Positions 12,085 to 61,325 of a stretch of 64,000 nucleotides of DNA are shown here, piece after piece. The notes beneath the pieces are model-generated. The model saw only the letters and a program-made list of their open reading frames with translations. It searched no databases and was not told the DNA's origin. The number at the start of each line of letters is the position of its first letter. Within the stretch, counting starts at the first letter, position 1. The translations under genes and the position numbers were made by a program. Source of the DNA: Clostridia bacterium (GTDB taxonomy: Bacteria; Bacillota; Clostridia; Peptostreptococcales; Anaerovoracaceae); NCBI GenBank assembly GCA_024693105.1, contig JAILLO010000046.1, forward strand, positions 479 through 64,478, written 5' to 3'.

Positions 12085-12100
12085 TGCCCTGCACCTCCTT

Positions 12101-12385: not shown

Positions 12386-12464
12386 AATTACAATATGATA
12401 TAATAATGTAGAATTTTGCGGAAGCACGCCGATGTACCTTCACGGCTTTGGGAAAGGAAAAAAT

Positions 12465-29300: not shown

Positions 29301-30584
29301 ATGCCTGTATTACAGCAACTCAACATCGCACTCAATGCTGTTACGCTTCTGGTGCTGCTTTTTATACTTATCACCTGGTTCTATGAGAGACGCTGGGACA
29401 GACGTTCGATTCTGTTTCTTCTCATGCTTCTGGCCGCAATGCCGCTCACTCTTTCGGATCTTATATGCTGGGTATTTGACGGAGCTGCCGGTTCCACCGC
29501 TTCCGTAATCAGATGGATTGCAAATACCGCGATGTATATTTTTTCGTACTGGAGTGCAATCATATACACGCATTATCTGCAGGAGGTAGTCGGCAGAGAT
29601 CTTCGAAAGCTGGCCATATATGTGAAAATAGTCGATATTTCATTTATTGTTGCTGTCGCCGCCCTTGCTTTTTCATTCACGGGAGACTACTATTTTTACT
29701 TTGAGAACAACTGCTATGTCAGAGGACCTTATACATTTGTTTCTCAGATTTACACTGCCGTTATAGTTTTGTGCGACACAGGCATTGCCCTCTTTGTCAG
29801 CGGAATTACAACACGCGAAAGAGTATCGCTTTTTTCATACTCAAGTCTGCCGCTTCTGGCAATGATTGTTCAGATTTTCTTTTTCGGTTTTTCCGCCATT
29901 ACCTATGCCGCAACAATGCTCGGACTGCTACTAATTTTTATGAATATACATATTCAGAGAAACAAATATCTCATAGAAAAGGAATCCGAGGCGCAGCAGG
30001 CGGAATTAAGCCTTGTTCTGAGCAAAATACAGCCGCATTTTATGTTTAATTCGCTCAATGTCATTGCCGCGCTGTGCAGTAAGGATCCACTTCAGGCCCG
30101 CGATGCCGTTGAAGATTTTGCCGGTTATCTGCGCGGAAATCTTGATTCGCTGGCAGAAAACATTCCGGTTCCTTTTTCGCGTGAGCTGCAGCATACGAAG
30201 CATTATCTCGGACTTGAGCTCCGCCGCTTTCCGGATCTGCACGTAATATATGACATTCAGACCGAGGACTTTCTGATTCCGACTCTTGCGCTTCAGCCGA
30301 TGGTTGAAAACGCCGTCAAACACGGTCTTCGCGCAAAGGAAGGCGAAGGAACCCTCAAAATCCGTACTTACGAAGACGAGCACAATGTCTATGTAAGTAT
30401 TGAAGATGACGGCGTCGGCTTTGATGTAAACCAGAAGAAAAACGACGGACGCTCACATATCGGCGTGGACGGAGTGCGTCTGCGCGTTGAATCCCTTTCA
30501 AAAGGACACCTTGATATAACAAGTACAATAGGAAAGGGAACGACTTCACTTATCACTCTGCCAAAATCGCAAAATTCTTGCTAA
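29301..30584 (+). CDS. LytS/YehU-type sensor histidine kinase, paralog 1 (about 6 TM sensor, His_kinase, HATPase_c)
   Basis: LSKIQPHFMFNSLNVI H-box, ENAVKHG N-box, EDDGVGF G-box. GAGGAGG SD. Confidence 0.85.
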   Translation: MPVLQQLNIALNAVTLLVLLFILITWFYERRWDRRSILFLLMLLAAMPLTLSDLICWVFDGAAGSTASVIRWIANTAMYIFSYWSAIIYTHYLQEVVGRDLRKLAIYVKIVDISFIVAVAALAFSFTGDYYFYFENNCYVRGPYTFVSQIYTAVIVLCDTGIALFVSGITTRERVSLFSYSSLPLLAMIVQIFFFGFSAITYAATMLGLLLIFMNIHIQRNKYLIEKESEAQQAELSLVLSKIQPHFMFNSLNVIAALCSKDPLQARDAVEDFAGYLRGNLDSLAENIPVPFSRELQHTKHYLGLELRRFPDLHVIYDIQTEDFLIPTLALQPMVENAVKHGLRAKEGEGTLKIRTYEDEHNVYVSIEDDGVGFDVNQKKNDGRSHIGVDGVRLRVESLSKGHLDITSTIGKGTTSLITLPKSQNSC

Positions 30585-30596
30585 AGGGAAATTATA

Positions 30597-31901
30597 ATGG
30601 CTATATCTCAGATAAATATCACTTTGGACATTTTTAATATTCTCGTGCTTTCGGCAATCCTGATAAGCTTTTTTTCCGAAAGAGACCGGGAAGGTAAAAA
30701 ATCACATCTTTATCTTCTCGTCCTTTTGAATGCCGCACTTCTGACATTGTTTGACATGCTCTCATGGATTTTTGAGGGAACCGAAAACACAGTTTTTTAT
30801 TATGTTGTGAATATTACCATATATGTTCTTTCGGACTCGATAATTACGCTGTACACGCATTTTATGAAGGCGTGCCTCAGTGATTACGGGAGAAAGCTTA
30901 ATATTTTCCGGCTTGCTGTAGATATTCTGTTTTTTATTTCTCTCGCATGCACGATACTCGGCACTGTCTACGGATTTATATTCAGGATTGAAGACGGTAT
31001 ATATGTACGCGGTTCGTACTACTGGCTTGCGCATGCTTTTGCAATCATAGTCATTCTTGCAAATTCCATTGTAATTCTGACCTCGTCAAAAGCACCTGCA
31101 AGAACGCGCTTTTCGCTGCTGTCATACACACTGCTGCCGCTGATATCGCTCTTCTTCCAGATGGTTCTTTACGGTGTTTCGGCAATCACATACACCGGCC
31201 TTACTCTTGGCATGCTGATTATTTTTCTTAACGTTCATATACGGCTGGGCAAAGAGCTTACACAAAAGGAAAAGGCCGCCGAGCAGGCACACATTTCCCT
31301 GCTTCTCAGCCAGATTCAGCCCCATTTCATTTTCAATGTTCTCAACATTATTTCGGCGCTTTGCTTAAAGGATGCCGATACGGCCCGCGAAACCGTTGAG
31401 GATTTTGCCGCTTATCTCAGGGGGAATCTTGATTCGCTGAACGAAAATGTACCTGTTACGTTTGAACGTGAGCTTAAGCATGTCAAACACTATATAGGGC
31501 TCGAGCAAAAACGTTTTCCCGACCTCAATGTGGAATACAACATAACCATTTCCGATTTTAAAATTCCTACACTTGCACTTCAGCCGCTGTGCGAAAATGC
31601 AATAAAGCACGGACTGCGTCCGAAGGAAAGTCCCGGAAACCTATATATTTCCACATATGAAGATCATGAGAATTACTACGTAAAGGTCGAAGATGACGGT
31701 GTCGGATTCAATCCCGAAGAGAAAAAGAATGACGGCCGCTCACATGTAGGTGTCTCAAATGTACGCCTGAGAGTCGAAAATCTTTCTGGTGGGAAGCTTC
31801 AGATTAACAGTATAAAGGGTGAAGGGACAAGCGCTGTAATTATTCTGCCGCGCTCAAAGCAGCGAAAGCTTACCGCCGGAACCGCAACGTCCGCCTGCTA
31901 A
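30597..31901 (+). CDS. LytS/YehU-type sensor histidine kinase, paralog 2
   Basis: Same architecture as paralog 1 (LSQIQPHFIFNVLNII, ENAIKHG, EDDGVGF). It starts 12 nt after paralog 1. Confidence 0.85.
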   Translation: MAISQINITLDIFNILVLSAILISFFSERDREGKKSHLYLLVLLNAALLTLFDMLSWIFEGTENTVFYYVVNITIYVLSDSIITLYTHFMKACLSDYGRKLNIFRLAVDILFFISLACTILGTVYGFIFRIEDGIYVRGSYYWLAHAFAIIVILANSIVILTSSKAPARTRFSLLSYTLLPLISLFFQMVLYGVSAITYTGLTLGMLIIFLNVHIRLGKELTQKEKAAEQAHISLLLSQIQPHFIFNVLNIISALCLKDADTARETVEDFAAYLRGNLDSLNENVPVTFERELKHVKHYIGLEQKRFPDLNVEYNITISDFKIPTLALQPLCENAIKHGLRPKESPGNLYISTYEDHENYYVKVEDDGVGFNPEEKKNDGRSHVGVSNVRLRVENLSGGKLQINSIKGEGTSAVIILPRSKQRKLTAGTATSAC

Positions 31902-32020
31902 AGACAAACCAAAACGCAACGCCCGCCCCTTGCGGACAAGGCGATAAAACCATGCCGCCTGCCCCCTGCGGACGGCCGCTGAAACCAACTTTGATAATTA
32001 CACAGGAAAGAGAATTTACC

Positions 32021-33310
32021 ATGGCTGTTATTGAACTCAACATTACACTTGATGCTATCAGTATTCTGGTTCTTATTGCCCTGCTGACAACTTTTTTTTC
32101 AGAGAAAAAACGCCGCGAAAAAAGTTCGCTTACTTTTTTCCTTCTGATTTCTTTCGCTATTCTTCTTTCATTGTCAGACCTGTTCTGCTGGTTTTTTGAA
32201 GGAAAAGAAGAATACAGCTTTTTAGTATGGCTGAGCAACTTCGGAACCTTTGTTTTTTCATACCTTGTTTCAGTAATTTTTACACACTATCTTGCCGGAT
32301 TTCTGAACCCCTCAAGGGAAGTTATCAGGCTTACGCTTCTTGGACTTGACGTCTCCTGCGCCCTGATGATACTTGCGCTTATCGTCACTGCGCCTTTTGA
32401 ACTCTTTTTTGCCATTAAAGACGGTTGTTATGTACGGGGACCTTTGACAGCCCTTACACATCTGTACGATGCCACAATTATCATTATAAACACTATTGTC
32501 ATAACGAAAACAAAGCAGGTTGAAAAAAGATACAAGCCTGTTCTTCTTTCATATTCGTTTGCACCTCTTGCCGCTCTTATACTGCAATCGTATTTTTATC
32601 AGTTGTCTGCGTTGACCTTCACCTCGGTTATGCTCAGCATCCTTTTGATTTTCCTGAATATACATATCAACAGAGGCCGTCTTCTTCTTCAGAAGGAAAA
32701 CGAGGTGCATCAGGCTCATACTTCACTTATGCTCAGTCAGATTCAGCCGCATTTCATGTTCAATTCGCTAAGCATAATTTCTTCATTATGCACAAAAGAT
32801 GCGGAAGAAGCCCGGATTGCGGTGGAAGATTTTGCGGCATATCTGCGCGGTAATCTCGATACTCTTGCGGTCAACACGCCGGTACCGTTTTCACAGGAGC
32901 TGAAACATGTACAGCACTATCTTAGCCTTGAAAAAAGGAGATTTCCGGACATCATTATCAAATATGACATAAAAACGGAAGATTTCCGCATACCTACGCT
33001 TGCACTGCAGCCGCTTTGCGAAAATGCCATAAGGCACGGTCTTTGCAAAATGGAGCACGGCGGCGAACTTGTCATTATGAGCTATGAGGACCCTACCTTC
33101 TTCAATGTCGTCATAAAAGACAACGGTGTCGGATTTGATTTCGACAAAAAAGCTGCCGGTTCGCCGCTCCATGTGGGGCTTGACAGTATCAGACTCAGAA
33201 TTGAAAAGCTGTCAGGCGGAAAGCTGCTCGTTGAAAGCATTCCGGGAACAGGCACAAAAATTACAATCAAAATTCCGAAGTCAAGCCCCGCATTGCAGCA
33301 GTTACAGTAA
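32021..33310 (+). CDS. LytS/YehU-type sensor histidine kinase, paralog 3
   Basis: Same architecture (LSQIQPHFMFNSLSII, ENAIRHG, KDNGVGF). The start is set at MAVIELNITLD by alignment with paralogs 1 and 2. Confidence 0.8.
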   Translation: MAVIELNITLDAISILVLIALLTTFFSEKKRREKSSLTFFLLISFAILLSLSDLFCWFFEGKEEYSFLVWLSNFGTFVFSYLVSVIFTHYLAGFLNPSREVIRLTLLGLDVSCALMILALIVTAPFELFFAIKDGCYVRGPLTALTHLYDATIIIINTIVITKTKQVEKRYKPVLLSYSFAPLAALILQSYFYQLSALTFTSVMLSILLIFLNIHINRGRLLLQKENEVHQAHTSLMLSQIQPHFMFNSLSIISSLCTKDAEEARIAVEDFAAYLRGNLDTLAVNTPVPFSQELKHVQHYLSLEKRRFPDIIIKYDIKTEDFRIPTLALQPLCENAIRHGLCKMEHGGELVIMSYEDPTFFNVVIKDNGVGFDFDKKAAGSPLHVGLDSIRLRIEKLSGGKLLVESIPGTGTKITIKIPKSSPALQQLQ

Positions 33311-33793: not shown

Positions 33794-35365
33794 CTAATCC
33801 TTCTTGCCGTTCTTCAAAAGTTCCGCCATATAAATGTCGTAAACCACATCTGCCCTCGGGCAGCCTGCATTCAGATTGTATGAAGCATCTCCGGCGCTGT
33901 GAATTATGCTTTGCGAATCTGCCCATGCCGCAGCGTCCGTATACCACTTATCCGGATTTGCGGCAGCTATAACACTTGCTTCTGTCGTTGCCGGTTCACC
34001 TGCATATCTCCATATAAATTTAAGTATGTGAGCATTTGTGCAAGTCATTTCAGGCGAGAAAACATTTTCGGAAGTTCCGTTTGTGATTCCCTTTTCAACC
34101 GCCCACAAAACCGCTTTTTCATAGTATGAGCCTTCTGCCACATCACCGAACGGATTTACCTGCGATGAAGGTTCGGGGCATCCCGCATATCTCCACAGGA
34201 ATGTAACAACCTGTGCACGCGTGCAGATTCCCGAAGGTGCAAATGACTCCTTTGTAACACCTGTAGTAATATTCTTCGCTGTGGCCCATTCAACAGCTTT
34301 CGCATAATAATCCTCTGCAAAAACATCCTCAAAGCCCGCTACAGTCCCGTCTTTGTCTTTGTCTTTGTCTTTTTCGTCCTCGCCGTCGCTTGCGGCCGGA
34401 GTATATTTTACGGTTCCGTCTTCCTGCACCTTCGCAATTACACTTCCGTCACTTCCGAGTACTTCATCTCCGGATATGCTGCCGACTACAAGAACATTTC
34501 CCTGCTCATCCACAATACCGAGGATTTTTCCATTTTTGTCGGTAATTGCGTCTCCATTGACCTTTTCAACCTGTGTCAGCGTTCCGTCAACTCCCTTTAC
34601 CGCTGTAATTTCACCGTTCTTTCTCACAACAGTACCGGATTTTTCCGGTGTGGATGTCTGCGAATCATCACCGACAGAAAGACTTCCCGATGTCTGACCG
34701 TCCGGATATTTATTTAGATAGGAAACAGTATATCCCCCGTTCCCGCTCCTTGATTCGGAAACAATATTTCCGTTATCGTCATAGCCGTATGTTATCGTAA
34801 ATTTTCCGGACTTCGTGAAAACCAGGTTGCGGTCGGCTGCGTCTTTATAATATACAGCTTTCTTCAGACGTCCGTTCTCCCATGTTTCGCTGCAATAGCT
34901 GACATCGTCACTGCTGCTGTAAACATCACAGTAGGCTTTGCCGCTGCTCGTAAAAGTCCTTTTTTCCGAATAGATTTTTCTGCCTTTCTTGTCGTATTCC
35001 GCAAAATATGTAATTTTTCCGGAAGAATCAAATTTAAACTCTTTCTTTCCTACTATAAAGTTGTACTTGTTGTATCTTGTAACAGTAAGATCCGTGCCGG
35101 AATATTCGTAAACATCAAAACGCGAATATCCGAATTCTTCTTCGGTGTCGACATCCCCGGGGAAATAGAAAACAGCGCCTATAGGCTTTCCCAATTCAAA
35201 TTTGAATATTTCCCTGTATGTTTCAACCGTTCCCGATTTTGTGCTCCTGACTTCTCTTTCGCTGAGCGAAGCGCCGGGCAGCTGCGAATCCGCATAAGCC
35301 GCCGAAACGGAAACTGCCAGCATTGCCGTAAACGCCAGTAAAAATATCAATATTCTTTTGCTCAT
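33794..35365 (-). CDS. Secreted surface protein: YD/RHS-like repeat region plus C-terminal SLH-like domains
   Basis: Signal peptide MSKRILIFLLAFTAMLAVSVSAAYA. YD-like repeats (TITYGYDDNGNIVSE). SLH-like FEDVFAEDYYAKAVEWA and FGDVAEGSYYEKAVLWA. Confidence 0.7.
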   Translation of the reverse strand: MSKRILIFLLAFTAMLAVSVSAAYADSQLPGASLSEREVRSTKSGTVETYREIFKFELGKPIGAVFYFPGDVDTEEEFGYSRFDVYEYSGTDLTVTRYNKYNFIVGKKEFKFDSSGKITYFAEYDKKGRKIYSEKRTFTSSGKAYCDVYSSSDDVSYCSETWENGRLKKAVYYKDAADRNLVFTKSGKFTITYGYDDNGNIVSESRSGNGGYTVSYLNKYPDGQTSGSLSVGDDSQTSTPEKSGTVVRKNGEITAVKGVDGTLTQVEKVNGDAITDKNGKILGIVDEQGNVLVVGSISGDEVLGSDGSVIAKVQEDGTVKYTPAASDGEDEKDKDKDKDGTVAGFEDVFAEDYYAKAVEWATAKNITTGVTKESFAPSGICTRAQVVTFLWRYAGCPEPSSQVNPFGDVAEGSYYEKAVLWAVEKGITNGTSENVFSPEMTCTNAHILKFIWRYAGEPATTEASVIAAANPDKWYTDAAAWADSQSIIHSAGDASYNLNAGCPRADVVYDIYMAELLKNGKKD

Positions 35366-35382
35366 ATCCGTTCCCCCAAAAA

Positions 35383-38121
35383 TCATAATTTGCTCAAAAT
35401 ATCACGAATCGCTTCTTCTACAGACTTCACCTCGGCAAGAAAGGCCTTTGAATCGATTTTCAGCGCGCCGTGGCCGAAAATAATCATCTGCTCAAGATTG
35501 TCCGATGTTGCGACTCTGATGCGCCGTTTACCCGCCATGCGGTGCGTCACCTTTTCTATGTACATATCCGCCGTTTCCGCCTCGCGCGTGTAAACAACAG
35601 AAATTCCATGCGTTTTTTCCACCCGGCCGGCATTGTGTCTCACCTTGTATGCGTCAAACACAAGAATGAGCTCGCACTGTGTATACCCCTGGTAATTACA
35701 CATAATATCAATGAGGCGATCCCTTGCGCTGTCTATGTTTGCCTTTGCAAGTTCCCTGAGTTCCTCCCATGCAAAGATGATATTGTAACCGTCAACCAGA
35801 AGGAATTCCGGCCCGTCAAAGGTTGCCTTTGGTGTCTTGCCTTTGTAATTACCGTACGCATCGCCTGCCGGGGAGTTTGCTTCCGCTTTCGCGGCATATG
35901 CTTTCTTGCCGGGATTGAAGGTGCTTTCCGTTGCTTCGCGGCTGACCTTCTTTTTCTGCGGAAGGTTCTGTCTGAGCGGACCGTAGGTCTTTTCAAAAAT
36001 AGCCATCAGCTCGCTGTCGGTTGCCGCGCGGCGCGTGAAAGAAGCTCTCCTTACAAGCTCAGTCTCTCCCTCATCCGAAACGCGTCTTGAAAAAATTGAC
36101 GGCAGATGCATATACTCGGGAACAAGATTCCACTTCACCGCAGTTCCGCTTCCGTGAGTGCAAAATACGGAATCCGCCGTGTTTTCGATGTCCCTGTCGC
36201 AGTCGTATCCGCACGACTGTGCGACCTCCTGCATATTGTGGCAGAGTTCGTAGCCCTTCAGCGTACAGAAAAGCTTCCCGCTGCCGTGAGTATAATTGCT
36301 TACTTCAAGCTGATAATCCTGCATGCATGCAACAGGCGCGCTGCCTGAAATCTCAGACATGCCGCCGTTTGCTTTTGGAGGTTCAAATTCTGCATTCATC
36401 CTCTGCAGATCCGACATTGCCTTCCCGACATTTTCTGTAGGAAGCGACAGCCTGAATGCGTACCACGGTTCAAGAAGCTGAACCTTTCCCTCTTCAAGCG
36501 CAGTTCTGAGCCCCTGCCTGAGTGCTCTGTATGTTGCCTGGCGGAAATCTCCGCCTTCTGTATGCTTTTCATGTGCCCGCCCCGCTACGAGCGTAATTTT
36601 CATATCACATAACGGCGAACCTGTCATAACGCCGATATGTTCCTTCTCTTCAAGGTGAGTAAGAATCAGTCTCTGCCAGTTTCTGTCAAGTTCATCCTCG
36701 CTGCAGTCACTGTCAAAAATGATTCCGCCGCCACGCGGAAGCGGCTCAAGCAGAAGATGGACCTCCGCGTAATGTCTGAGCGGCTCAAAATGCCCTACGC
36801 CCTCAAAAGCCTCCGAAATCGTCTCGCGGTAAAGTATGCTGCCGCGTTCAAATTCGACGTCCATTCCAAAGCGTTCCATGAGAAGAACCTTCAGAATTTC
36901 GGTCTGAACCTCACCCATCAGCTGCACATAAATTTTTGAAAGAGTCTCATTCCATACTACGTGAAGCTCGGGCTCCTCTTCCTCGAGAATCCTGAGGTTT
37001 GTCAGGGCCTTATGCACATCGTATCCCGGCTGCAGTCTTACCTCATAATTGAGAACCGGAGTGAGCACCGGAAATTCCGAATCCTTTTCCTCTCCGAGTC
37101 CCTGACCCGGCCTTGTATACTGCGGTCCCGTAACTGCGCAGATCATTCCCGGAAGCACCTCGTCCACAGGCTGGAATTTTTCGCCCGAATATATTCTGAT
37201 CTGATTGATTTTTTCTGTAATAACGCTGTCATTCGCTGAAGGCATAGCGGCAGAATGGGCCGGAGGTTTGCAGTTAATCGTGCTTCTCACCTTCAGAAAG
37301 CCGCCTGTTATCTTCATATGTGTAAGTCTGTTTCCGGCGCTGTCTCTTGTAATCTTGAACACCTTTGCACCGAACTTGGCAGAATAATGCGGTTCCTCCG
37401 TCAAAAGGTCAAGTGCTGCGGCAATACCGTCCGTTCCCGTCATTTTCAATGCGGATCCGCTGAAACACGGGAATAATTTGCCGGAGCTGACTGCCGAAAT
37501 AATATCGCGGTCTTTGAGCGGCGCTCCCTCAAAAAAGCTTTCAAGAAGCTTTTCATCACATTCCGCCGCCTCTTCTTCGCTAAAATCGAAGCACGAAAGC
37601 ATACTCTCCTCTTTGGAAGAGCCCGAGGCCTTTTGTGAGGCCTTGTTATTATACCGGAACTCTACGCAGCCATCCCCGAGTTTTTCCCTGATTTCAGCCA
37701 TAAGCTCATCACGCGGAATGCCTGCAAGATCCGTTTTGTTGATGAAAATAAATGTGGGAATACCGTGCATGCGCAGCAGCTGCCAGAGTGTCTGAGTATG
37801 ACTCTGCACACCGTCTGCGGCACTTATAAGAAGAACTGCACAGTCAAGAACCTGCAGTGTTCGCTCCATTTCCGGGCCAAAATCAACATGCCCCGGAGTA
37901 TCAAGAAGCGTAACAGAAGTTTTTCCCAGCTGCAGATTTGCCTGCTTGGAAAAAATCGTAATGCCACGCTCACGTTCAAGTCTGTAATTATCAAGAAAAG
38001 CGTCCCCATGGTCGACACGACCGGGTTTTCTGAGCGTACCGGAAAGGTACAAAAGTGCTTCCGACAAAGTTGTTTTGCCCGAATCCACATGCGCAAGGAC
38101 GCCGGTTACAATCCGCTTCAT
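35383..38121 (-). CDS. Fusion protein: EF-G/Tet(M)-family translational GTPase (about aa 1-690), K/A-rich linker, C-terminal Rae1/YacP NYN endoribonuclease domain (last about 142 aa, nt 35386-35811)
   Basis: G1 AHVDSGKT, G3 DTPGH, G4 NKTD, with EF-G-like domains II-V following. The C-terminus reads FLLVDGYNIIFAWEEL..VFDAY..EAETADMYIEK..VATSDNLEQMIIFGHGAL, which lines up motif by motif with B. subtilis YacP/Rae1 as I recall it. SD plus ATG at 38121. There is no stop or frameshift between the two parts. Confidence 0.85.
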   Translation of the reverse strand: MKRIVTGVLAHVDSGKTTLSEALLYLSGTLRKPGRVDHGDAFLDNYRLERERGITIFSKQANLQLGKTSVTLLDTPGHVDFGPEMERTLQVLDCAVLLISAADGVQSHTQTLWQLLRMHGIPTFIFINKTDLAGIPRDELMAEIREKLGDGCVEFRYNNKASQKASGSSKEESMLSCFDFSEEEAAECDEKLLESFFEGAPLKDRDIISAVSSGKLFPCFSGSALKMTGTDGIAAALDLLTEEPHYSAKFGAKVFKITRDSAGNRLTHMKITGGFLKVRSTINCKPPAHSAAMPSANDSVITEKINQIRIYSGEKFQPVDEVLPGMICAVTGPQYTRPGQGLGEEKDSEFPVLTPVLNYEVRLQPGYDVHKALTNLRILEEEEPELHVVWNETLSKIYVQLMGEVQTEILKVLLMERFGMDVEFERGSILYRETISEAFEGVGHFEPLRHYAEVHLLLEPLPRGGGIIFDSDCSEDELDRNWQRLILTHLEEKEHIGVMTGSPLCDMKITLVAGRAHEKHTEGGDFRQATYRALRQGLRTALEEGKVQLLEPWYAFRLSLPTENVGKAMSDLQRMNAEFEPPKANGGMSEISGSAPVACMQDYQLEVSNYTHGSGKLFCTLKGYELCHNMQEVAQSCGYDCDRDIENTADSVFCTHGSGTAVKWNLVPEYMHLPSIFSRRVSDEGETELVRRASFTRRAATDSELMAIFEKTYGPLRQNLPQKKKVSREATESTFNPGKKAYAAKAEANSPAGDAYGNYKGKTPKATFDGPEFLLVDGYNIIFAWEELRELAKANIDSARDRLIDIMCNYQGYTQCELILVFDAYKVRHNAGRVEKTHGISVVYTREAETADMYIEKVTHRMAGKRRIRVATSDNLEQMIIFGHGALKIDSKAFLAEVKSVEEAIRDILSKL

Positions 38122-38156: not shown

Positions 38157-38669
38157 TTAATCTATGGAGCGAACCGCATTGAATTCACCGTAAGGATTTC
38201 CCGAAAGCGTTACGCTCATATGACAGTAAATGTTTCCGTCCTGCGCCTTTGCAAAGGTAACCGTCATATTCATTGAGGCTTCAAAAACTGCCGAGGATGT
38301 TTCCTGATTGTAGTCCGCAAAAATATCATCGCTGCACTGCGGATCGAAGCAGTGCAGACGGCCTGTTCCGTCATCGTCGTAATTGTAGGTACCCATATCG
38401 TAATTGTGCTTGTTCATATAAATATTTTCGCCTATGAAATGATATGTACCTCTGATTTCCGCCAGTGTAAGATTGCCCTGAACGGCACTTTTGAAGGCTT
38501 CATCAAGTGCAACGGTTTCTTCGTTCGGCTCGTTGGGCGGTTGCTGTGTAACCGTTGAAGGAACGGCAGATGTTTCTTTTTCCGGTTCCTGTTTCTCCTC
38601 GGAGGCACAGCCTGTAAAGCAGCATAAAATAAGAACAAATATCAGTATATGCGCAAAAATCTTTTTCAT
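38157..38669 (-). CDS. Hypothetical lipoprotein (170 aa)
   Basis: Lipobox FTGC-A. AAGGAGG SD. It ends 35 nt upstream of the GTPase-NYN gene. Confidence 0.7.
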   Translation of the reverse strand: MKKIFAHILIFVLILCCFTGCASEEKQEPEKETSAVPSTVTQQPPNEPNEETVALDEAFKSAVQGNLTLAEIRGTYHFIGENIYMNKHNYDMGTYNYDDDGTGRLHCFDPQCSDDIFADYNQETSSAVFEASMNMTVTFAKAQDGNIYCHMSVTLSGNPYGEFNAVRSID

Positions 38670-38982: not shown

Positions 38983-39058
<76 letters not shown>

Positions 39059-39090
39059 ATATCAGGTTGACCGGTAATCGGCTTAAATGT

Positions 39091-39179
39091 TGGTGCCGGA
39101 AACCGGGGTCGAACCGGTACGATCGGTAAGGATCGCAGGATTTTAAGTCCTGTGCGTCTGCCAATTCCGCCATTCCGGC
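39091..39179 (-). tRNA. tRNA-Leu (TAA), class II with a long variable arm
   Basis: GCCGGAA/TTCCGGC acceptor stem, anticodon loop CTTAAAA, 89 nt, encoded CCA. Confidence 0.85.
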
Positions 39180-39232
39180 ACAAGTTCAGACATCAAAAGA
39201 GGGTTTTTCACCCTCTGCAATGTCTAAAAAAA

Positions 39233-39307
39233 TGGCTGCGAAGGAGGGGCTCGAACCCTCGACCTTGCGGTTAACAGCCGCCTGCTCCACCATTGAGCTA
39301 CTTCGCA
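39233..39307 (-). tRNA. tRNA-Asn (GTT)
   Basis: TGCGAAG/CTTCGCA acceptor stem, anticodon loop CTGTTAA, T-loop GGTTCGAGCCC, encoded CCA. Confidence 0.8.
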
Positions 39308-53925: not shown

Positions 53926-56304
53926 TCAACCTTCTTTCAACTGTACTATTGTCACTCCGTCACCGCCCTCGTTCATGCGGCCGTTTCTGAAGCTTTTGAC
54001 ATGCTTATGGCTCTTGAGCATATGCTGTATGCCGCTTCTGAGTATTCCTTCGCCTCTTCCGTGAATAACGGTAACTGTTGTAAGGCCTGCCATAAATGCA
54101 TCATCAAGGTATTTGTCAACATCCATAACGGCATCGTCAAGATATCTGCCCTGAACATTTATGCTCGGACTTATCTCTGCCGACTTTTGCCTGTACATGC
54201 TTCCGTAACCGGAATTCTTTGCCTTCTTCTTTGCCGGAGCATTGTTTTCTATGGACATGAGGTCCTTTATATTGACATTAATCTTCATAATGCCGACCTG
54301 AACCGTCAAATCTCCTTTGTCGTCGGGAAGCGTGATAACTTCTCCGTTTTGGTCTATCGAAAGAATTTTGACCCTGCTTCCTTCGCGAAGCTGCTCTTTT
54401 TTGACGGGATTTCTGTTTTCGGGAACCTGTATGCCGTCACGATGCTTCGATTCGGCATTTTTTATGCGTCTTCTGTTTTCATCAAAACGCTTTGTCCTCT
54501 CGCCCAGACTTTCAATCTTCGAAAGCTCTCTCAGCTCCTTTTGTATGTCTGAGGACAGTTCCTTTGTTTCTCTGATTATTTCACGTGCTTCATGCCTTGC
54601 CTGAGCCAGTATTTTTTCTTTTGCGGCATCAAGCTTTGCCCGTTCTTTGTCAAGTTCTTCCTTTTGTTTTTTGATTGCAAGCGACAGATAAATTGCCTCG
54701 TCTCTTTCTTCTTCGGCCTTTCTTCTGTCCTTTTCAAGTGCCTCTATAACACTTTCAAATTCTATATCACCTGTTTCAAGAAGAGTCTTTGCATGTTCGA
54801 TGATTTTCTCTTCAAGACCAAGCTTTCTTGATATTTCAAACGCATTTGACTTCCCCGGCGTACCTGTTGTCAGCCTGTATGTCGGGCTCAGCGTTTCAAT
54901 GTTGAATTCCATTGAGGCATTTTCAACGCCGGGCGTCGAAATTGCGTATTTTTTCAGTTCTGTATAATGTGTCGTCGCAAGCGTTTTTGCGCCGCGCCTG
55001 TAAAGATTGTCGAGTATCGCCACCGCAAGAGCAGCACCCTCTGCAGGGTCTGTTCCGGCGCCGAGCTCATCTATAAGAACCAGAGTTCCCTCATCCGCCT
55101 TTGAAACGATATCAACTATATTGTTCATATGAGATGAAAAAGTCGAAAGGCTCTGCTCTATACTCTGTTCGTCGCCTATATCGGCAAAAATATTTGCATA
55201 AACCGGCATTTTCGTACCTTCCGCCGCCGGTACATGAAGACCCGACTGCGTGAGCACCGCAAAAAGGCCGACCGTCTTGAGCGTTACCGTTTTTCCTCCG
55301 GTATTTGGTCCCGTAATAATCAGCGTGTTGTATTCACCGCCGAGTCCGACAGAAATCGGGACTACTTTTTTTGCATCGATAAGAGGGTGGCGTCCCTTTC
55401 TTATCTCGAGAATTCCCTCGTCATTGATAACAGGCTCCGTTGCGTCCCACATGCTCGAAAGCTTTCCCTTTGCAAAGATGAAATCGAGCTGCAAAAGCAG
55501 TTTCTGATTGTTGAGTATTTCATGATAATGCTCCGAGACATAACCGGAAAGTTCATACAAAATGCGCTCTATTTCGGCCTTTTCCGCAAGTTCAAGCTCA
55601 CGGAGTTCATTGTTCAGGTTCACAATTACCTGCGGCTCTACAAACAAAGTGGAACCGCTTGCCGACTGGTCATGAATAATACCCGGAAATCTGCTTCTGT
55701 GCTCCTGTTTGACAGGAATCACATAACGCCCGTCGCGCATTGTAACTATCGAATCCTGAAGCAGTGATTTGTTTTCCTGAGAATTCATTATCTGGTTCAT
55801 TCTCGCCCTGATTGATTCGTTCTGACGCACTATGCTTCTGCGTATGCTGCGAAGCTCGGGGCTTGCATTGTCTGCCATCTCATCTTCTGACAAAATGCAT
55901 CTTTCAATATCTTCCTCAAGCTTTTTCTGAACGGAAATGACCTCTGCAATACTTTTAATAATGGGAACCGGCGGCAAATCGGATTTGAGAAAGGTTACAA
56001 CATTTCTTGCAACGGCCAGGTTGTATCTGATTTCCAAAAGCTGCTTCATCGTCAGACTTCCGCCTTTTCTTGCCAGATGAAGATAATTATCGATGTCGTA
56101 AAAATTCCCCAAAGGCAATGCGCCTTTATGCACAATAACGGAAACCGCTTCCGTGGTTTCCGCTAACAAGTCCTTTATCCGCCTTGAATCACTGACAGGC
56201 TGCAGTTTTTCGATAACTTCCTTAGTCATGGCCGACGCCGCCTGTTCTTTAAGTATGTTTATTATTTTGTAGTACTCAAGTACCTTTTGCGCTTTCCGAT
56301 TCAT
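53926..56304 (-). CDS. mutS2: Endonuclease MutS2 (MutS ATPase core plus C-terminal Smr domain)
   Basis: Walker A GPNTGGKT. C-terminal Smr domain (VTVIHGRGEGILR). Confidence 0.9.
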   Translation of the reverse strand: MNRKAQKVLEYYKIINILKEQAASAMTKEVIEKLQPVSDSRRIKDLLAETTEAVSVIVHKGALPLGNFYDIDNYLHLARKGGSLTMKQLLEIRYNLAVARNVVTFLKSDLPPVPIIKSIAEVISVQKKLEEDIERCILSEDEMADNASPELRSIRRSIVRQNESIRARMNQIMNSQENKSLLQDSIVTMRDGRYVIPVKQEHRSRFPGIIHDQSASGSTLFVEPQVIVNLNNELRELELAEKAEIERILYELSGYVSEHYHEILNNQKLLLQLDFIFAKGKLSSMWDATEPVINDEGILEIRKGRHPLIDAKKVVPISVGLGGEYNTLIITGPNTGGKTVTLKTVGLFAVLTQSGLHVPAAEGTKMPVYANIFADIGDEQSIEQSLSTFSSHMNNIVDIVSKADEGTLVLIDELGAGTDPAEGAALAVAILDNLYRRGAKTLATTHYTELKKYAISTPGVENASMEFNIETLSPTYRLTTGTPGKSNAFEISRKLGLEEKIIEHAKTLLETGDIEFESVIEALEKDRRKAEEERDEAIYLSLAIKKQKEELDKERAKLDAAKEKILAQARHEAREIIRETKELSSDIQKELRELSKIESLGERTKRFDENRRRIKNAESKHRDGIQVPENRNPVKKEQLREGSRVKILSIDQNGEVITLPDDKGDLTVQVGIMKINVNIKDLMSIENNAPAKKKAKNSGYGSMYRQKSAEISPSINVQGRYLDDAVMDVDKYLDDAFMAGLTTVTVIHGRGEGILRSGIQHMLKSHKHVKSFRNGRMNEGGDGVTIVQLKEG

Positions 56305-56308: not shown

Positions 56309-56875
56309 TTACTTAAGATCCTTTTTCATTTTTTCATTTTCATTCTTGAGTCTGATGTTTTCCATCTGAATCTCGAAAAAATTATTTTCAAGATCTTTGT
56401 ATTTTTCTTCGGCCTGTGAAAGAGCTCTGTCTGAATTCTCGCCCATGCTCTTTTTCATGTCTTCAAGCTCTGCCCTCAGTTTCGCTATCTCATCCTCCTG
56501 CTCTTTGGCCTTTGTCATCAATTCTTCTTTTTGTTTTGCCGTTGAAGCCGCTTCTTCCTTGCATTGTACAAAATTTGTCTTGCATTCTTCCCACAGCATT
56601 ACATAATGGTCGGTATCCTTCGTCAGCTGCTCATTGACCTCCTGCAGGCTCTGATTTTTTTCAAGCTGCTCGAAATAATCATCGGCCGCATTCACTGCCG
56701 CAAGAATGGCTACCGTCACAGGATTCTTCTTCGTAAACGCTGCACTGATTTCGTGCATTTTCTTATCGACATATTCTGCAACATGTTCAATATGTTCCCT
56801 GGAAGTATCACCTGCTATTGTGAACTCCTGCCCGTAAATTTTTACGTTCACTTTGTTGCTGCTTCCCATATTCAT
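56309..56875 (-). CDS. zapA: Cell-division protein ZapA with an extended coiled-coil tail
   Basis: VKIYGQEFTIAGDTSREHIEHVAEYVDKKM is ZapA-like. Confidence 0.7.
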   Translation of the reverse strand: MNMGSSNKVNVKIYGQEFTIAGDTSREHIEHVAEYVDKKMHEISAAFTKKNPVTVAILAAVNAADDYFEQLEKNQSLQEVNEQLTKDTDHYVMLWEECKTNFVQCKEEAASTAKQKEELMTKAKEQEDEIAKLRAELEDMKKSMGENSDRALSQAEEKYKDLENNFFEIQMENIRLKNENEKMKKDLK

Positions 56876-56974
56876 GCTCCTTCAACAAACTTATCCGGGA
56901 CACCGCATAATATACGGCATCCCGGGTATATAACCTACAGTTCCCGGGAATAACCCGGTTTTCACGGAAAGAAA

Positions 56975-59404
56975 CTACATTTCTCTCAGAGTTGCCTTTG
57001 TCTTTTCTTCGAGCTGCTTAAGCACCTTTGCATGAACCCCGGAAACCTCCTCATCGGTAAGAGTTCTGTCCGAAGCTCTGTAAGTAAGCGTAAATGCGAC
57101 ACTCTTCTTTCCTTCGGCAACCTGCTTGCCTCTGTATACGTCAAACAGTTTGACATTTTCAAGGATGTCTCCGCCGTTTTCAGCGATGATCTTTTCGATT
57201 GTGCCGACCTGCACGTCTTCATCGACAAGCAGGGCAATATCTCTTGATGTTGCAGGGAATTTAGGAAGAGGCTTGTACGCCTTTTCGACATTTGCATTTC
57301 TTACTACCGCTTCAAAGAGGATCTCACAGCAGTAGCAGCGTGTGCCTATACCGTACTTATCCGCAACGTCCGGGTGAATTTCGCCCATGATTCCGAGTTC
57401 CTCACCGTTATAGCTGATTCTTGCGCAGCGTCCCGGATGATAAACACCATATTCGCTCTCTGCCGTAAATTCGAGGTCGCGGATTCCGAGATTGTTGAGG
57501 AGTTCAACAACGATACCCTTAAGAGTATAGAAGGTTTCGCCCTCACCGTATGCCGCAACGCAAAGTGCATCCTGCTCGCTTGGCAGCTCTTCCGGGTCGG
57601 TCAGATTTGCCATAAATGTATTTCCGATTTCAAAAGCTCTTGCCGCAGGAAGATTCCTTGAGTAGTTTCTTCCCAGCACTTCAAGCATATTCGGAGTCAG
57701 AACGGTTCTCATAACCGAATTTTCTTCTCCCAGAGGATTTATGATGCGTACAAAGGCTCTTTCCCATGAATCCTCGGCAATGCGGATATTGTCCACTCCC
57801 TTTGGACTTACAAAGGAATAAGTCTGGATTTCGTTTGCTCCCAGTCCGCAAAGAATTTCTCTTGCCATGTCTCTGAGAGTTCTTACCTTTGGCTCTGTTA
57901 CCTGAACATTTCCGGCAGGAATTGTCACAGGCATCTTATCATATCCGTAAAGTCTTGCAACTTCTTCGATGTAATCAACTTCGGTCTCGAGGTCCTGACG
58001 AATTGTCGGAGGCGTAACCTTCATGATGTTTCCTTCACCTTCAACCTTCATTTCAAGGCTCTCGAAATAACCTGTCATCTGCTCTCTTGAAATATTAATT
58101 CCGAGAACGCTGTTGACTCTGTCAACACGAACATCCACAGGCTTATGCACAGCAGGTGCCGGATAAACGTCAACAGAGCCCTTGCATACCTTTCCTGCTC
58201 CGAGCATTTCAATAAGTCTGCACACTCTGTCCGCAGCAGCCTCGCAGAGGTTAGGGTCGATACCCTTTTCGTATCTTGAAGAAGCTTCCGTACGAAGAGT
58301 CAGTTTCTTTGAAGTCGCTCTGATATTGTCTCCGTTGAAGTTTGCGGATTCAATCAGAACAGTATTTGTATCTGATTCGATTTCCGAATTCAGACCTCCC
58401 ATGATGCCTGCAAGAGCAACACCTTTTTTGGCGTCCTTGATAAGGAGCATGCTGTCGTTGAGAGTTCTTTCGGTGCCGTCAAGTGTCGTGAATTTTTCTC
58501 CCTTTTCAGCAGTATCCACCACAATCTTTGCTCCTTCAACCATGCGGATGTCAAAAGCGTGAAGAGGCTGTCCGTATTCGAGCATTACGAAATTTGTTAT
58601 ATCGACTATATTGTTGATAGGTCTCATGCCCGCAAAGATAAGTCTCTTCTGAAGCCACCATGGTGACTGTGCAATCTTAACATCTGTTACAACTCTTGCA
58701 ACATACCTTCTGCAAAGGTCAGGTCTTTTTATTTCAACCTGAATATGGTCTTTTGCGTTTCCTTCTTCCTTTTCGCACTTTGTATCCGGATATCTGAGCT
58801 TTTCTCCGAATGTTGCTGCCGATTCTCTTGCCATTCCTATCATAGCAAGGCAGTCAGGTCTGTTCGGGGTTATTTCAAAATCAACAACGGCGCTTTTGAG
58901 TCCCGTTGCTTCAACAAAGTCCATGCCCGGCGTATATTCGCCTTCCATAATCCATATACCGTCTCTGTGCGCAATCGGAACCACTTTGTCATCAAGTCCG
59001 AGCTCTCCGGCAGAACAAAGCATGCCAAACGATTCAACTCCTCTGAGCTTTCCTTTTTTGATCTTGACTCCGCCTTCAGTCTTAGGCTGACCGTGAAGCG
59101 GGCCCGGAATATGGCTGCCGTGAAGCGCAACCGGAACGTATGCTCCCTCAAAAACATTTGTTGCGCCGGTTACAATCTGAACAGGCTCTTCCTGTCCGAC
59201 ATTCACACTGCATACAACAAGCTTGTCGGCATCGGGATGCTTTTCGATCTTTTCGATTTTTCCTACGACAACACCCTCAATACCTTCTCCGAAATATTCA
59301 ACAGTCTCAAGATTTGAGCCTGACATAATCATTCTGTCACAGAATTCATTAACACTTACCTTTACATCGGTATAATCTTTCAGCCATTCAACAGGTACTA
59401 ACAT
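56975..59404 (-). CDS. pheT: Phenylalanine--tRNA ligase beta subunit
   Basis: 809 aa. N-terminal tRNA-binding domain, B3/4, B5 and FDX-ACB domains. Confidence 0.95.
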   Translation of the reverse strand: MLVPVEWLKDYTDVKVSVNEFCDRMIMSGSNLETVEYFGEGIEGVVVGKIEKIEKHPDADKLVVCSVNVGQEEPVQIVTGATNVFEGAYVPVALHGSHIPGPLHGQPKTEGGVKIKKGKLRGVESFGMLCSAGELGLDDKVVPIAHRDGIWIMEGEYTPGMDFVEATGLKSAVVDFEITPNRPDCLAMIGMARESAATFGEKLRYPDTKCEKEEGNAKDHIQVEIKRPDLCRRYVARVVTDVKIAQSPWWLQKRLIFAGMRPINNIVDITNFVMLEYGQPLHAFDIRMVEGAKIVVDTAEKGEKFTTLDGTERTLNDSMLLIKDAKKGVALAGIMGGLNSEIESDTNTVLIESANFNGDNIRATSKKLTLRTEASSRYEKGIDPNLCEAAADRVCRLIEMLGAGKVCKGSVDVYPAPAVHKPVDVRVDRVNSVLGINISREQMTGYFESLEMKVEGEGNIMKVTPPTIRQDLETEVDYIEEVARLYGYDKMPVTIPAGNVQVTEPKVRTLRDMAREILCGLGANEIQTYSFVSPKGVDNIRIAEDSWERAFVRIINPLGEENSVMRTVLTPNMLEVLGRNYSRNLPAARAFEIGNTFMANLTDPEELPSEQDALCVAAYGEGETFYTLKGIVVELLNNLGIRDLEFTAESEYGVYHPGRCARISYNGEELGIMGEIHPDVADKYGIGTRCYCCEILFEAVVRNANVEKAYKPLPKFPATSRDIALLVDEDVQVGTIEKIIAENGGDILENVKLFDVYRGKQVAEGKKSVAFTLTYRASDRTLTDEEVSGVHAKVLKQLEEKTKATLREM

Positions 59405-59416
59405 CTATGACACCTC

Positions 59417-60439
59417 CTACTTAAACTGGTTGATGAAACGCATATCGTTGTCATAGAACAACCTGATATCATCAACACCGTACTTCAACATAGCGATTCT
59501 TTCAACACCCATACCGAACGCAAAGCCCGTATACTTTTCGGTATCAAGCTTTCCGACATCAAGAACGTTCGGATGAACCATGCCGCAGCCGAGGATTTCA
59601 ATCCAGCCGCTGCCCTTGCATACTCTGCAGCCTTTTCCGCCGCATTTGAAGCAGGAAACGTCCATTTCGGCACTCGGTTCGGTAAACGGGAAGTGATGCG
59701 GTCTGAACTTTGTTCTTACCTCAGAACCAAACATCTGCTTTGCAAAAGTATCAAGTGTTCCCTTAAGATCTGCCATTGTAATTCCTTCATCAACAACAAG
59801 TCCCTCTACCTGATGGAACATAGGTGAGTGAGTTGCATCGGGAGTATCGCATCTGAAGCAGCGTCCCGGTGAAATAATCTTGATAGGAGGCTTCTGCGCC
59901 ATCAGCGTTCTTGCCTGAACCGGAGAAGTCTGAGTTCTCAGAAGTGTCTTTTCCGTAATGTAGAATGTATCTGTCATATCACGTGCAGGATGATTAGGTC
60001 CCGCATTGAGTGCGTCAAAGTTAAAAAATACCGTCTCAACTTCAGGGCCTTCTGCGATGGAGAATCCCATCGACTTGAAAACTCTTGAGATTTCTTCTAT
60101 GGTAATCGTCAGAGGATGCTTTGTGCCGATGTTATAAGGGACACCCGGCTCTGTCACATCAATTGTTTCAAGTTTAAACTGTGCCTTTCTTGCCGATTCC
60201 TTCACCTGCGCAAACTTCTCTTCAAGAAGTTTTTCTATCTCTGCTCTGACTGCGTTTGCAGCCTGTCCGAGTTCTTTCTTTTCTTCCGGCGAAAGCTTTC
60301 CCATTCCTCTGAGGATTTCCGTAAGCTGGCCTTTCTTTCCCAGAGCTTTGACTCTGATACTGTCTGTTTCGGCAACGGTAGCGGCCTTTGCAAGCTCGTC
60401 CTTTACCTGCTGCAAAATATTGTTAAGCTGAATTTGCAT
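59417..60439 (-). CDS. pheS: Phenylalanine--tRNA ligase alpha subunit
   Basis: Class-II motifs (HPARDMTDTFY, FRPHHFPFTEPS, GFAFGMGVERI). Confidence 0.95.
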   Translation of the reverse strand: MQIQLNNILQQVKDELAKAATVAETDSIRVKALGKKGQLTEILRGMGKLSPEEKKELGQAANAVRAEIEKLLEEKFAQVKESARKAQFKLETIDVTEPGVPYNIGTKHPLTITIEEISRVFKSMGFSIAEGPEVETVFFNFDALNAGPNHPARDMTDTFYITEKTLLRTQTSPVQARTLMAQKPPIKIISPGRCFRCDTPDATHSPMFHQVEGLVVDEGITMADLKGTLDTFAKQMFGSEVRTKFRPHHFPFTEPSAEMDVSCFKCGGKGCRVCKGSGWIEILGCGMVHPNVLDVGKLDTEKYTGFAFGMGVERIAMLKYGVDDIRLFYDNDMRFINQFK

Positions 60440-60459
60440 TTATTTACCTCTTTCTTTTC

Positions 60460-61239
60460 TTAATTTCTCATGGATTCATACATCAGAATCCCGCCCGCAA
60501 CCGATGCGTTCAGCGAATCTATACGGCCGCTCATCGGAATTTTGATTTTTAAATCCGACAGGGCAATCATTTCTTCACAGATGCCCCTTCCCTCGTTCCC
60601 TATAACGAGAGCAATATTTTTTCTGAGATCCACGTTGCTGTAATAAAGCTCCGTGTCAAAACACGTACTCACGATCTTCTTTTGATGCCTTTTAAGAACG
60701 CCTGCCGCTTCCTCCGGTGATTCCGCAAAATAAAGCGGCACACGAAAAAGCGAGCCCGCCGCAGCTCTTACAACCTTTGGGGAAAAAACATCACCGCTGC
60801 CCTTGAGCAGCATAACCCCGCCGTAGCCTGCAGCATCTGCCGTCCTTATAAGCGTTCCGAGATTTCCCGGGTCCTGAAGCCTGTCAAGTACAAGCACATT
60901 GCCGTTTCCTTCGGAACACCTCTCAAAGAATTCACTTTCTTTGTAGCTGCGCTTCTTCACAACAGCGATAACTCCCTGCGATGTGTCCGTCTGCGCTATG
61001 GCATCAAAAAGCTTCTCGTCGAATGTGCATAATTCTACTGCCGCCTTTTCCTCAAAGAGAGGTCCTTTGTAGCCTCTTCGGTATATCAAAGCATCCATTG
61101 CTTCGTTTTCCCTGAGTGCCTCCTCTATAAGATTCGGTCCTTCAATAAGATATGCCCCAAAGCTGTCTCTGTATTTTTTGCCTGAAAGCTTGCTGCAAAA
61201 TTTGAATATTCTGTTGTCCTTTGAATTGATTTCCTTCAT
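60460..61239 (-). CDS. TrmH/SpoU-family RNA 2'-O-methyltransferase
   Basis: SPOUT motifs (LDRLQDPGNLGTLIRTA, VIGNEGRG, IPMSGRIDSLNASVA). Confidence 0.8.
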   Translation of the reverse strand: MKEINSKDNRIFKFCSKLSGKKYRDSFGAYLIEGPNLIEEALRENEAMDALIYRRGYKGPLFEEKAAVELCTFDEKLFDAIAQTDTSQGVIAVVKKRSYKESEFFERCSEGNGNVLVLDRLQDPGNLGTLIRTADAAGYGGVMLLKGSGDVFSPKVVRAAAGSLFRVPLYFAESPEEAAGVLKRHQKKIVSTCFDTELYYSNVDLRKNIALVIGNEGRGICEEMIALSDLKIKIPMSGRIDSLNASVAGGILMYESMRN

Positions 61240-61263
61240 GCAACAATCCTTTTCAATATTTAG

Positions 61264-61284
61264 AAAAGCCGGCTTTCACCGGCT
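61264..61284 (-). terminator. Short terminator after ftsZ
   Basis: AGCCGG-N6-CCGGCT followed by TTTT on the minus strand. Confidence 0.55.
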
Positions 61285-61325
61285 TGTTTCCCTTTTGACA
61301 GTCAGAAAGATTTCGTTCCTTCGAT

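Follow-up and report, generated by a model that had tools for sequence, protein, structure and literature searches.

The window analysed here is a stretch of 64,000 nucleotides (nt) from a gut Clostridia bacterium (contig JAILLO010000046.1), and our main finding concerns a single gene at 35383-38121, on the minus strand, that joins a five-domain translational GTPase of the EF-G type to an endoribonuclease domain of the Rae1/YacP (NYN) type. The observation of this GTPase-NYN fusion is confirmed and robust. Its product is identical to the NCBI protein MCR5481802.1, from a Clostridia metagenome-assembled genome (MAG), and is an ordinary member of a large, catalogued and functionally unstudied family. 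The fusion is conserved across Clostridia, obligate and old, and, judging from the residues retained, both modules keep intact and conserved catalytic centres. The protein is most likely a chromosomal housekeeping factor of translation surveillance. We give about an even chance to the more specific proposal that it acts as a GTPase-targeted, ribosome-dependent mRNA nuclease for the rescue of stalled or collided ribosomes.

Architecture of the fusion protein

The original prediction had described one uninterrupted open reading frame (ORF) of 912 codons at this position. Direct reading of the window bore this out and placed the gene on the minus strand, with the ATG at 38121 and the stop at 35385-35383; the plus-strand reading of 35383-38121 gives a translation full of stops. 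An in-frame TTG also lies further upstream (38139). The family consensus N-terminus, MKRLVxGILAHVD, favours the ATG, and the N-terminus of the window protein (MKRIV.G.LAHVD) agrees with this consensus. The six Pfam domains that had been expected, GTP_EFTU, EF-G_D2, EFG_III, EFG_IV, EFG_C, and NYN_YacP, were all found on the single polypeptide. An AlphaFold2 model built on 40 homologues had a mean predicted local distance difference test score (pLDDT) of 76.9, and in Foldseek it matched EF-G structures with E = 3e-51 and Tet(M) (3J9Y) with 28% identity. The features of the gene, all on the minus strand and with their positions in the protein given in amino acids (aa), are as follows.

35383-38121, minus strand: coding sequence of the GTPase-NYN fusion, 912 aa plus stop
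38137-38129, minus strand: Shine-Dalgarno-like GGGAGAAGG, 7 nt upstream of the fusion ATG
37405-38112, minus strand: G domain with G' insertion, aa 4-239 (Pfam GTP_EFTU, 1e-45)
37099-37374, minus strand: domain II beta-barrel, aa 250-341 (Pfam EF-G_D2; strands in the AlphaFold2 model; Foldseek matches to EF-G)
36847-37059, minus strand: domain III, aa 355-425 (Pfam EFG_III; Foldseek)
36499-36840, minus strand: domain IV, aa 428-541 (Pfam EFG_IV, 4e-18)
36757-36795, minus strand: domain IV loop I motif GHFEPLRHYAEVH, aa 443-455, invariant in the family
36523-36576, minus strand: domain IV tip motif AHEKHTEGGDFRQATYRA, aa 516-533, replacing Tet(M) loop III L505-YYSPVS
36235-36480, minus strand: domain V, aa 548-629 (Pfam EFG_C, 6e-16)
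35983-36234, minus strand: family-specific C-terminal extension, aa 630-713 (conservation; AlphaFold2 pLDDT 67-84 for 631-680)
35812-35982, minus strand: disordered basic tether rich in K, P, R, and A, aa ~714-770 (pLDDT <50 for 713-767)
35386-35811, minus strand: Rae1/YacP-type NYN endoribonuclease domain, aa 771-912 (Pfam NYN_YacP; alignment with Rae1; Foldseek)

The first ~690 residues had originally been assigned to the GTPase. A complete GTPase of the EF-G fold is indeed present there, and its canonical part ends near residue 629, not 690. The residues that follow, up to the tether, form an extension of about 85 aa with a helix, a beta-hairpin (DSVFCxHGxGxxVxW), short helices, and a long helix carrying ELMxIFE(K/R)TYGP. 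No Pfam match was obtained for residues 630-770, even at E = 10, and a fold search with a model of residues 496-912 gave no identification of the extension, which had a pLDDT of 34-57 in that model, built on a 9-sequence alignment. The linker of about 55 aa that had been predicted ahead of the nuclease was recovered as the disordered segment 713-767. Among 130 relatives, measured from TYG to LLVDGYN, the tether was present throughout and at least 28 aa long (28-88 aa, median 38), with a median net charge of +5.

The GTPase module and its conserved domain IV

The N-terminal module belongs to the EF-G/EF2-type five-domain factors. The motifs G1 (AHVDSGKTT), G2 (RGITI), G3 (DTPGH, with the catalytic His78), and G4 (NKTD) were all found and do not vary among 40 homologues, and domains II-V follow in the EF-G order. 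Two segments of domain IV are under unusual constraint. In all 40 sequences, which average 54% identity, GHF/YEPLRHYAEVH (443-455) and AHxKHTEGGDFRQATYRA (516-533) are identical or nearly so. The loop I motif GHFEPLRHYAEVH is 4 aa shorter than the GGRGQ loop of EF-G, and EPLRH stands in its place. Such near-invariance suggests that the domain IV tip makes a specific contact with the decoding centre.

The fusion shares with EF-G the G domain, domains II-V, the catalytic His, and, in domain IV, the invariant His517, which aligns with EF-G His573 (Thermus thermophilus numbering). When domain IV was searched alone, EF-G of T. thermophilus scored best (1.8e-10, against 2e-6 for Tet(M)/Tet(O)). However, identity to EF-G is only 21-24%, loop I is shorter, the C-terminal modules are extra, and the EF-G equivalog model TIGR00484 gave 229 bits against a cut-off of 659. 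The GTPase module forms a subfamily of its own, with an identity of ~45% within it and ~29% to Tet(M).

Comparison with tetracycline resistance proteins

Public records name members of the family 'TetM/TetW/TetO/TetS family tetracycline resistance ribosomal protection protein', 'elongation factor G', or 'translation factor GTPase family protein', so the mislabelling by automatic pipelines that had been foreseen is real. The original prediction had itself called the GTPase 'Tet(M)-type', which holds in part. Tet(M)/Tet(O) (3J9Y, 4V6V) have the same five-domain EF-G fold and are the best full-length match in the PDB (2.7e-70), whereas the domain IV tip, the extension, and scores below the curated cut-offs for ribosomal protection proteins set the fusion apart. 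The best NCBIfam match was tet_protect, with 416 bits against a cut-off of 775, and the other models for ribosomal protection proteins were further off: 279 against 1100 for TetM/W/O/S, 311 against 900 for Otr(A), and 258 against 1425 for Tet(Q). Loop III of Tet(M) has been described as its functionally most important element and is held to displace the drug (PMC4750697). In the alignment, this loop (L505-Y506-Y507-S508-P509-V510) falls on R-A-H-E-K-H, and AHxKH is invariant in the family. Ribosomal protection proteins typically have ~640 aa and a short C-terminal helix and are found on transposons or plasmids. The fusion has 912 aa, a C-terminal extension that differs from that of Tet(M)/Tet(O) and is much longer, and a nuclease, and it occurs in varied chromosomal contexts.

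A function as a tetracycline-resistance protein is unlikely on these grounds. A related proposal, suggested by Atkinson 2015 (PMC4342817), is genuine ribosomal protection against tetracycline or another A-site antibiotic, combined with an RNase that clears mRNAs on drug-stalled ribosomes. It draws on the best full-length PDB and NCBIfam matches, on the placement of the fusions in the Tet subfamily in the same study, on the induction of Rae1-dependent rescue by erythromycin (PMC13622287), and on the tolerance of Tet(M) for some loop III substitutions (PMC4750697). Against this stand the equivalog scores, the replaced loop III, the closer relation of domain IV to EF-G, the low identity to Tet(M), and the presence of the gene on chromosomes of at least 598 species rather than on transposons or conjugative plasmids. 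We therefore consider this proposal very improbable.

The nuclease module

The last ~142 residues had been assigned to Rae1/YacP with its acidic active-site residues, and the assignment stood. NYN_YacP (PF05991) matched at 774-907 (1.8e-46; 158.6 bits against a cut-off of 24.6) over positions 1-136 of the 166 in the profile, and identity to Bacillus subtilis Rae1 was 43% over 135 aa. D777, D823, D852, and D874, which do not vary in the family, align with Rae1 D7, D53, D81, and D104. Consistent with this, the model of the domain superposed on the Rae1 crystal structures 5MQ8/5MQ9 with target-normalised template-modelling (TM) scores of 0.70-0.76 and root-mean-square deviations (rmsd) of 2.1-3.5 A in Foldseek. 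The best superposition, with 5MQ9_A (TM 0.76, rmsd 2.1 A, 43% identity), was obtained with the C-terminal part modelled separately. Strict regular expressions for the catalytic motifs matched 199-256 of 257 full-length representatives, and for the NYN motifs the failures listed were mostly conservative variants with the Asp retained. No NCBIfam model for Rae1 matched the NYN domain.

Two subtypes of the NYN domain were seen among the fusions. A short one, found in the window and in most Oscillospiraceae-type proteins, ends near the equivalent of Rae1 residue 136, and a long one occurs in Blautia-type fusions of 918 aa, which retain the tail motif L-x-EE...R-x-R of the Rae1 C-terminus.

Relation to Rae1 and earlier reports

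Fusions named Tet-NYN_YacP were reported in Clostridia by Atkinson 2015 (PMC4342817) and again by Matelska 2017 (PMC5499597), and the window protein fits this definition, with a Tet-like translational GTPase N-terminal to NYN_YacP in one Clostridial polypeptide. Both papers are silent on the experiments with Rae1. The architecture itself is thus not new, and its function is unstudied: full-text literature searches found no functional study of a GTPase-NYN fusion. The original claim that no characterised protein has this architecture accordingly holds for functional work, whereas the architecture had been catalogued in 2015 and 2017. Overall, the original interpretation is partly supported: its general idea is reasonable, and its claim of novelty is too strong.

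Rae1 is a stand-alone protein of 170 aa, encoded in cysS-mrnC-rlmB-rae1-sigH, that binds ribosomes transiently. The fused domain shares its fold, its four acidic residues, and 43% of its residues (5MQ9, TM 0.75-0.76), and a similar dependence on ribosomes is expected. It differs in being the C-terminal module of a 912-aa GTPase, in lacking the last ~30 residues, and in its genomic context. A September 2026 preprint described Rae1-dependent transfer-messenger RNA (tmRNA) tagging after ribosome collisions and a role of Rae1 in collision rescue (PMC13622287). The same preprint notes that a structure of ribosome-bound Rae1 is lacking because of the transient binding, and GTPase fusions are unmentioned in it.

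The original prediction took it as established that Rae1 cuts in the A site. This has been superseded, since the model of 2017 that docked Rae1 in the A site (summarised in PMC12407103) has been replaced by the laboratory that proposed it. The change bears on a possible mechanism in which the fusion brings its NYN domain into the A site for a RelE-like cut of the codon there, gated by GTP hydrolysis. Such a delivery would be in keeping with the 2017 docking, with the way in which EF-G/Tet(M) factors place their domain IV in the A site, and with the flexibility of a tether of at least 28 aa. However, with that docking abandoned, domain IV and its invariant tip would also leave no room in the A site for a domain of 140 aa, and entry of the NYN domain only after the exit of domain IV would make the targeting module pointless. 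Delivery into the A site thus seems improbable.

Distribution and integrity of the fusion

A HMMER scan over 1.84 billion cluster representatives placed the family in more than 150 clusters at 50% identity; the best 150 matches reach E = 1e-177 and nearly all have 830-1000 aa. The best 120 homologues listed all have the fusion architecture, with 54-88% identity. A scan of GTDB, with one genome per species and the peptides KHTEGGDF and ILVFDAYK, matched at least 599 stretches, of which 598 were confirmed, so that the fusion is present in at least 598 species. Among the carriers are Oscillospiraceae, Ruminococcus, Faecalibacterium, Lachnospiraceae, Intestinimonas, Flavonifractor, and Peptostreptococcaceae MAGs; at species level, Intestinimonas butyriciproducens and Agathobacter rectalis are examples.

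An assembly artefact or a split into two genes had been named as a possible objection. The fusion stands: it is a single intact ORF in 75 of the 80 best species-representative loci, the other 5 being broken by contig ends or frameshifts, in addition to the identical protein in NCBI. Two apparent two-gene forms were examined and rejected. In one of them (L085-86) the junction coincides exactly with a run of N (L085 5962-5971), which is a scaffold gap, and the other (L084) has a frameshift in the GC-rich linker (L084 5960-6020); the corresponding proteins are P0131 and P0147. There was no good evidence of genuinely split GTPase and NYN genes among the loci examined. The closest NYN-only matches (137-268 aa, several marked 'partial') were likewise considered as stand-alone relatives, and most seem to be pieces of fusions cut off where a contig ends. 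Public calls of a separate 'NYN domain-containing protein' beside a Tet-like GTPase can be artefacts.

Non-fused relatives and stand-alone rae1

Non-fused relatives of the GTPase, of 640-660 aa, are widespread on the chromosomes of Lactobacillaceae (P0391-P0510). An example is LSL_RS10690 of Lactobacillus salivarius, with 644 aa and beside rpsN (L092 4618-6552, pMP118). These proteins show 46% identity to window residues 1-672, both domain IV motifs, and the hairpin SVFCxHGxG..V.W, and they share the extension up to ...MH672. In contrast to the fusion, they stop right after the hairpin and have no long helix, tether, or NYN domain. Their labels are inconsistent (EF-G, GTP-binding protein, or TetM family), and at 374 bits they also fall short of the cut-off for ribosomal protection proteins.

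For the neighbour-joining tree, 18 non-fused sequences were sampled, 582 columns were used, and Tet(M) served as the single outgroup. The 18 sequences form one clade in 100 of 100 bootstraps, nested among the fused proteins. The fused proteins average 45% identity to one another and likewise to the non-fused ones, compared with ~29% to Tet(M). The nesting hints at a secondary loss of the nuclease in Lactobacillaceae, as far as a neighbour-joining tree with a single outgroup goes.

The canonical slot of stand-alone rae1 is cysS-mrnC-rlmB-rae1-sigH in B. subtilis and Clostridioides difficile. The fusion-carrying Monoglobus pectinilyticus has a YmdB-like gene after rlmB, not rae1, and in Vescimonas (Oscillospiraceae) no rae1 follows rlmB. 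No second NYN match was found for Monoglobus, the one usable case among records mislabelled as plasmids, in the searched collection, in which a hisS probe showed the genome to be incompletely represented. Replacement of stand-alone Rae1 by the fusion is thus suggestive only, given incompletely represented genomes.

Genomic surroundings of the fusion gene

The neighbours of the fusion vary from locus to locus. In Blautia they are dus, as an overlapping gene, and nearby greA. In Angelakisella, sugar-utilisation genes precede the fusion and a glycosyltransferase cluster follows it. In one MAG (L084), infB-rbfA-nrnA-truB-ribF lies directly ahead of the gene. All-against-all ORF clustering of 80 loci gave no conserved operon partner, only shadow ORFs inside the gene, and the commonest flanking family occurred at 11 of the 80 loci.

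Some of these neighbourhoods, those of L084 and Blautia, would suit a role in stable RNA, with the GTPase positioning the NYN domain to trim or cleave rRNA or tRNA on 70S-like particles during biogenesis, quality control, or turnover. An analogy is the cleavage of pre-18S rRNA by Nob1 in 80S-like particles, which is stimulated by eIF5B/Fun12. The basic tether could bind rRNA, and before 2017 YacP had been predicted from the mrnC/rlmB operon to be an rRNA or tRNA processing enzyme (PMC5499597). However, the only experimentally established substrates of Rae1 are mRNAs on translating ribosomes (PMC12407103, PMC13622287), the fused domain is 43% identical to this mRNA-cutting enzyme, and the neighbourhoods are not conserved, so that the biogenesis context of a single locus weighs little. 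A stable-RNA role is therefore unlikely in our judgement.

Results from three databases speak against an origin in defence or mobile elements. PADLOC gave no defence match for the fusion. IMG/VR held only 5 partial matches, none of which reached into the NYN domain, and PLSDB only 2 full-length matches, both on large records (252 and 518 kb) that are non-mobilizable and resemble parts of chromosomes. Four IMG/VR contigs classed as viral (L088-L091) match only residues 496-673, with 50-52% identity and no NYN domain, and in 3 of the 4 the match lies near the contig end; these contigs may be host flanks of prophages or mis-binned DNA. With varied neighbours, no PADLOC match, and few matches in IMG/VR and PLSDB, the gene has a housekeeping profile and does not look like a resistance gene on a transposon or part of a defence island.

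The same results weigh on the idea that the NYN domain is a mere RNA-binding anchor, or that the fusion is a toxin or defence effector that halts translation under stress or phage attack. NYN/PIN domains are common in toxins and defence systems, and an action of Rae1 on phage mRNAs has been speculated upon (PMC13622287). However, four invariant catalytic Asp residues would be needless for mere binding. A toxin or defence effector is opposed by the PADLOC result, by the 80 loci, which show no antitoxin, immunity gene, or other conserved neighbour, and by the wide chromosomal distribution in at least 598 species. We attach hardly any probability to either version.

The surroundings of the gene in the window were as follows. 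Upstream lies a cluster of tRNA-Asn, tRNA-Leu, and tRNA-Met genes (38983-39307, minus strand), ahead of which is a perfect TTGACA-17-TATAAT promoter match (39367-39339). An ORF of 170 aa (38157-38669, minus strand) ends 35 nt upstream of the fusion ATG and had no Pfam or PADLOC match. Directly 3' of the fusion is a gene for an SLH-domain protein (33794-35386, minus strand), whose first ATG overlaps the fusion stop (ATGA); 20 nt beyond it is a second ATG, equipped with a GGGGGA ribosome-binding site. The fusion and SLH genes are probably co-transcribed because a terminator-like hairpin (33533-33510) comes after both of them.

Proposed mechanism

A ribosome-targeted mRNA nuclease is the most economical reading of the fusion. 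By homology with EF-G and Tet(M), the GTPase module would dock at the ribosomal factor-binding site, and the conserved domain IV tip would sense, on a ribosome that has stalled or collided, which state the decoding centre is in. Since domain IV would fill or probe the A site, the NYN domain would have to act outside it, and this 15-kDa domain might reach mRNA at the edge of the 30S subunit. On the 70S ribosome, the mRNA exit side is on the far side of the 30S subunit and the entry channel is much nearer to the factor site. The most plausible target would be the mRNA at the entry channel of the factor's own ribosome. When two ribosomes form a disome, the mRNA exit of the stalled one lies opposite the entry channel of the trailing one, and a factor bound to the trailing ribosome could therefore put the nuclease on the stretch that is cut by free Rae1. 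Alternatively, the factor might bind the stalled ribosome with its empty A site, like Tet(M), and cut downstream mRNA. Either way a truncated mRNA would arise, from which tmRNA can rescue the ribosomes, and GTP hydrolysis on the sarcin-ricin loop would release the factor. The GTPase would thus supply covalently the ribosome targeting that free Rae1 has only transiently. We give a lower chance, well under even, to the narrower version in which the EF-G-like module, on a trailing ribosome that cannot be translocated, holds the Rae1 domain at the disome interface, GTP hydrolysis licenses one cut, and both ribosomes pass to tmRNA.

Parallels to such a factor exist in other systems. SmrB of Escherichia coli and Cue2 of yeast resemble it in the proposed cutting of mRNA on stalled or collided ribosomes to start rescue. 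However, they have unrelated folds (SMR domains) and no covalent GTPase. Pelota-Hbs1, a GTPase-delivered A-site probe, offers a parallel in GTPase delivery and has no nuclease.

Several points weigh against a rescue nuclease of this kind. Non-fused GTPases are common in Lactobacillaceae, and the GTPase must therefore have some function without a covalent nuclease. Tet(M) can accept changes in loop III as long as the loop keeps its conformation (PMC4750697), so that a missing motif is not in itself decisive against drug displacement. Because the NYN domain of the window protein stops near the equivalent of Rae1 residue 136 and has no counterpart of the C-terminal tail (Rae1 137-170), it may handle substrates differently. 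Ribosome binding, the RNA substrate, and the position of the cut are put forward by homology, and the geometry of the mechanism rests on general knowledge of 70S and disome structures.

Other features of the window

About 16 kb from the fusion, the window carries mutS2 (53929-56304, minus strand) with MutS_V, MSSS SH3, and Smr domains. Together with the adjoining ftsZ, SpoU-type rRNA methylase, pheS, pheT, and zapA genes (56312-62546, minus strand), it forms a block. MutS2 is a collision sensor and ribosome splitter of the ribosome-associated quality control type in B. subtilis. With MutS2 and the fusion in the same window, the organism would have both collision routes.

Three tandem paralogous genes at 29301-33310 (plus strand) code for histidine kinases of 427, 434, and 452 aa with Pfam His_kinase (PF06580) and HATPase_c, and no response-regulator gene lies in between. 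The TTG listed as the start of the infC (IF3) ORF (11566-12195, minus strand) is overlapped by an L20 leader found with Rfam (12098-12226), and the real infC start is therefore probably further downstream. Adjoining infC is a divergent gene (12432-13799, plus strand) with the head domain of poly(A) polymerases and CCA-adding enzymes.

Significance of the fusion

The domain architecture has been in the literature since 2015, which limits its novelty. The value of the fusion lies in its implications for collision rescue by Rae1, in the structural handle that it offers, and in the correction of a 'tetracycline resistance' mis-annotation. This label stands on fused and non-fused members in many gut-microbiome genomes, and resistome counts are probably too high as a result of this mislabelling.

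How Rae1 recognises stalled or collided ribosomes is a current question, and the fusion may help to show it. It ties a Rae1-type nuclease covalently to a module with a well-understood ribosomal docking site and is thereby evolutionary evidence for where Rae1-type enzymes work. It may also serve as a practical reagent, in that a nuclease-dead fusion, GTPase-dead or locked with GDPNP, could be trapped on ribosomes or disomes for cryo-electron microscopy. If the trailing-ribosome mechanism is true, the fusion would be the first case of direct nuclease delivery by a translational GTPase, and free Rae1 in Bacilli, cyanobacteria, and chloroplasts would recognise the same site. The fusion could then give the stable ribosome complex that has so far not been attained for Rae1, and would be a natural 'Rosetta stone' of the pathway.

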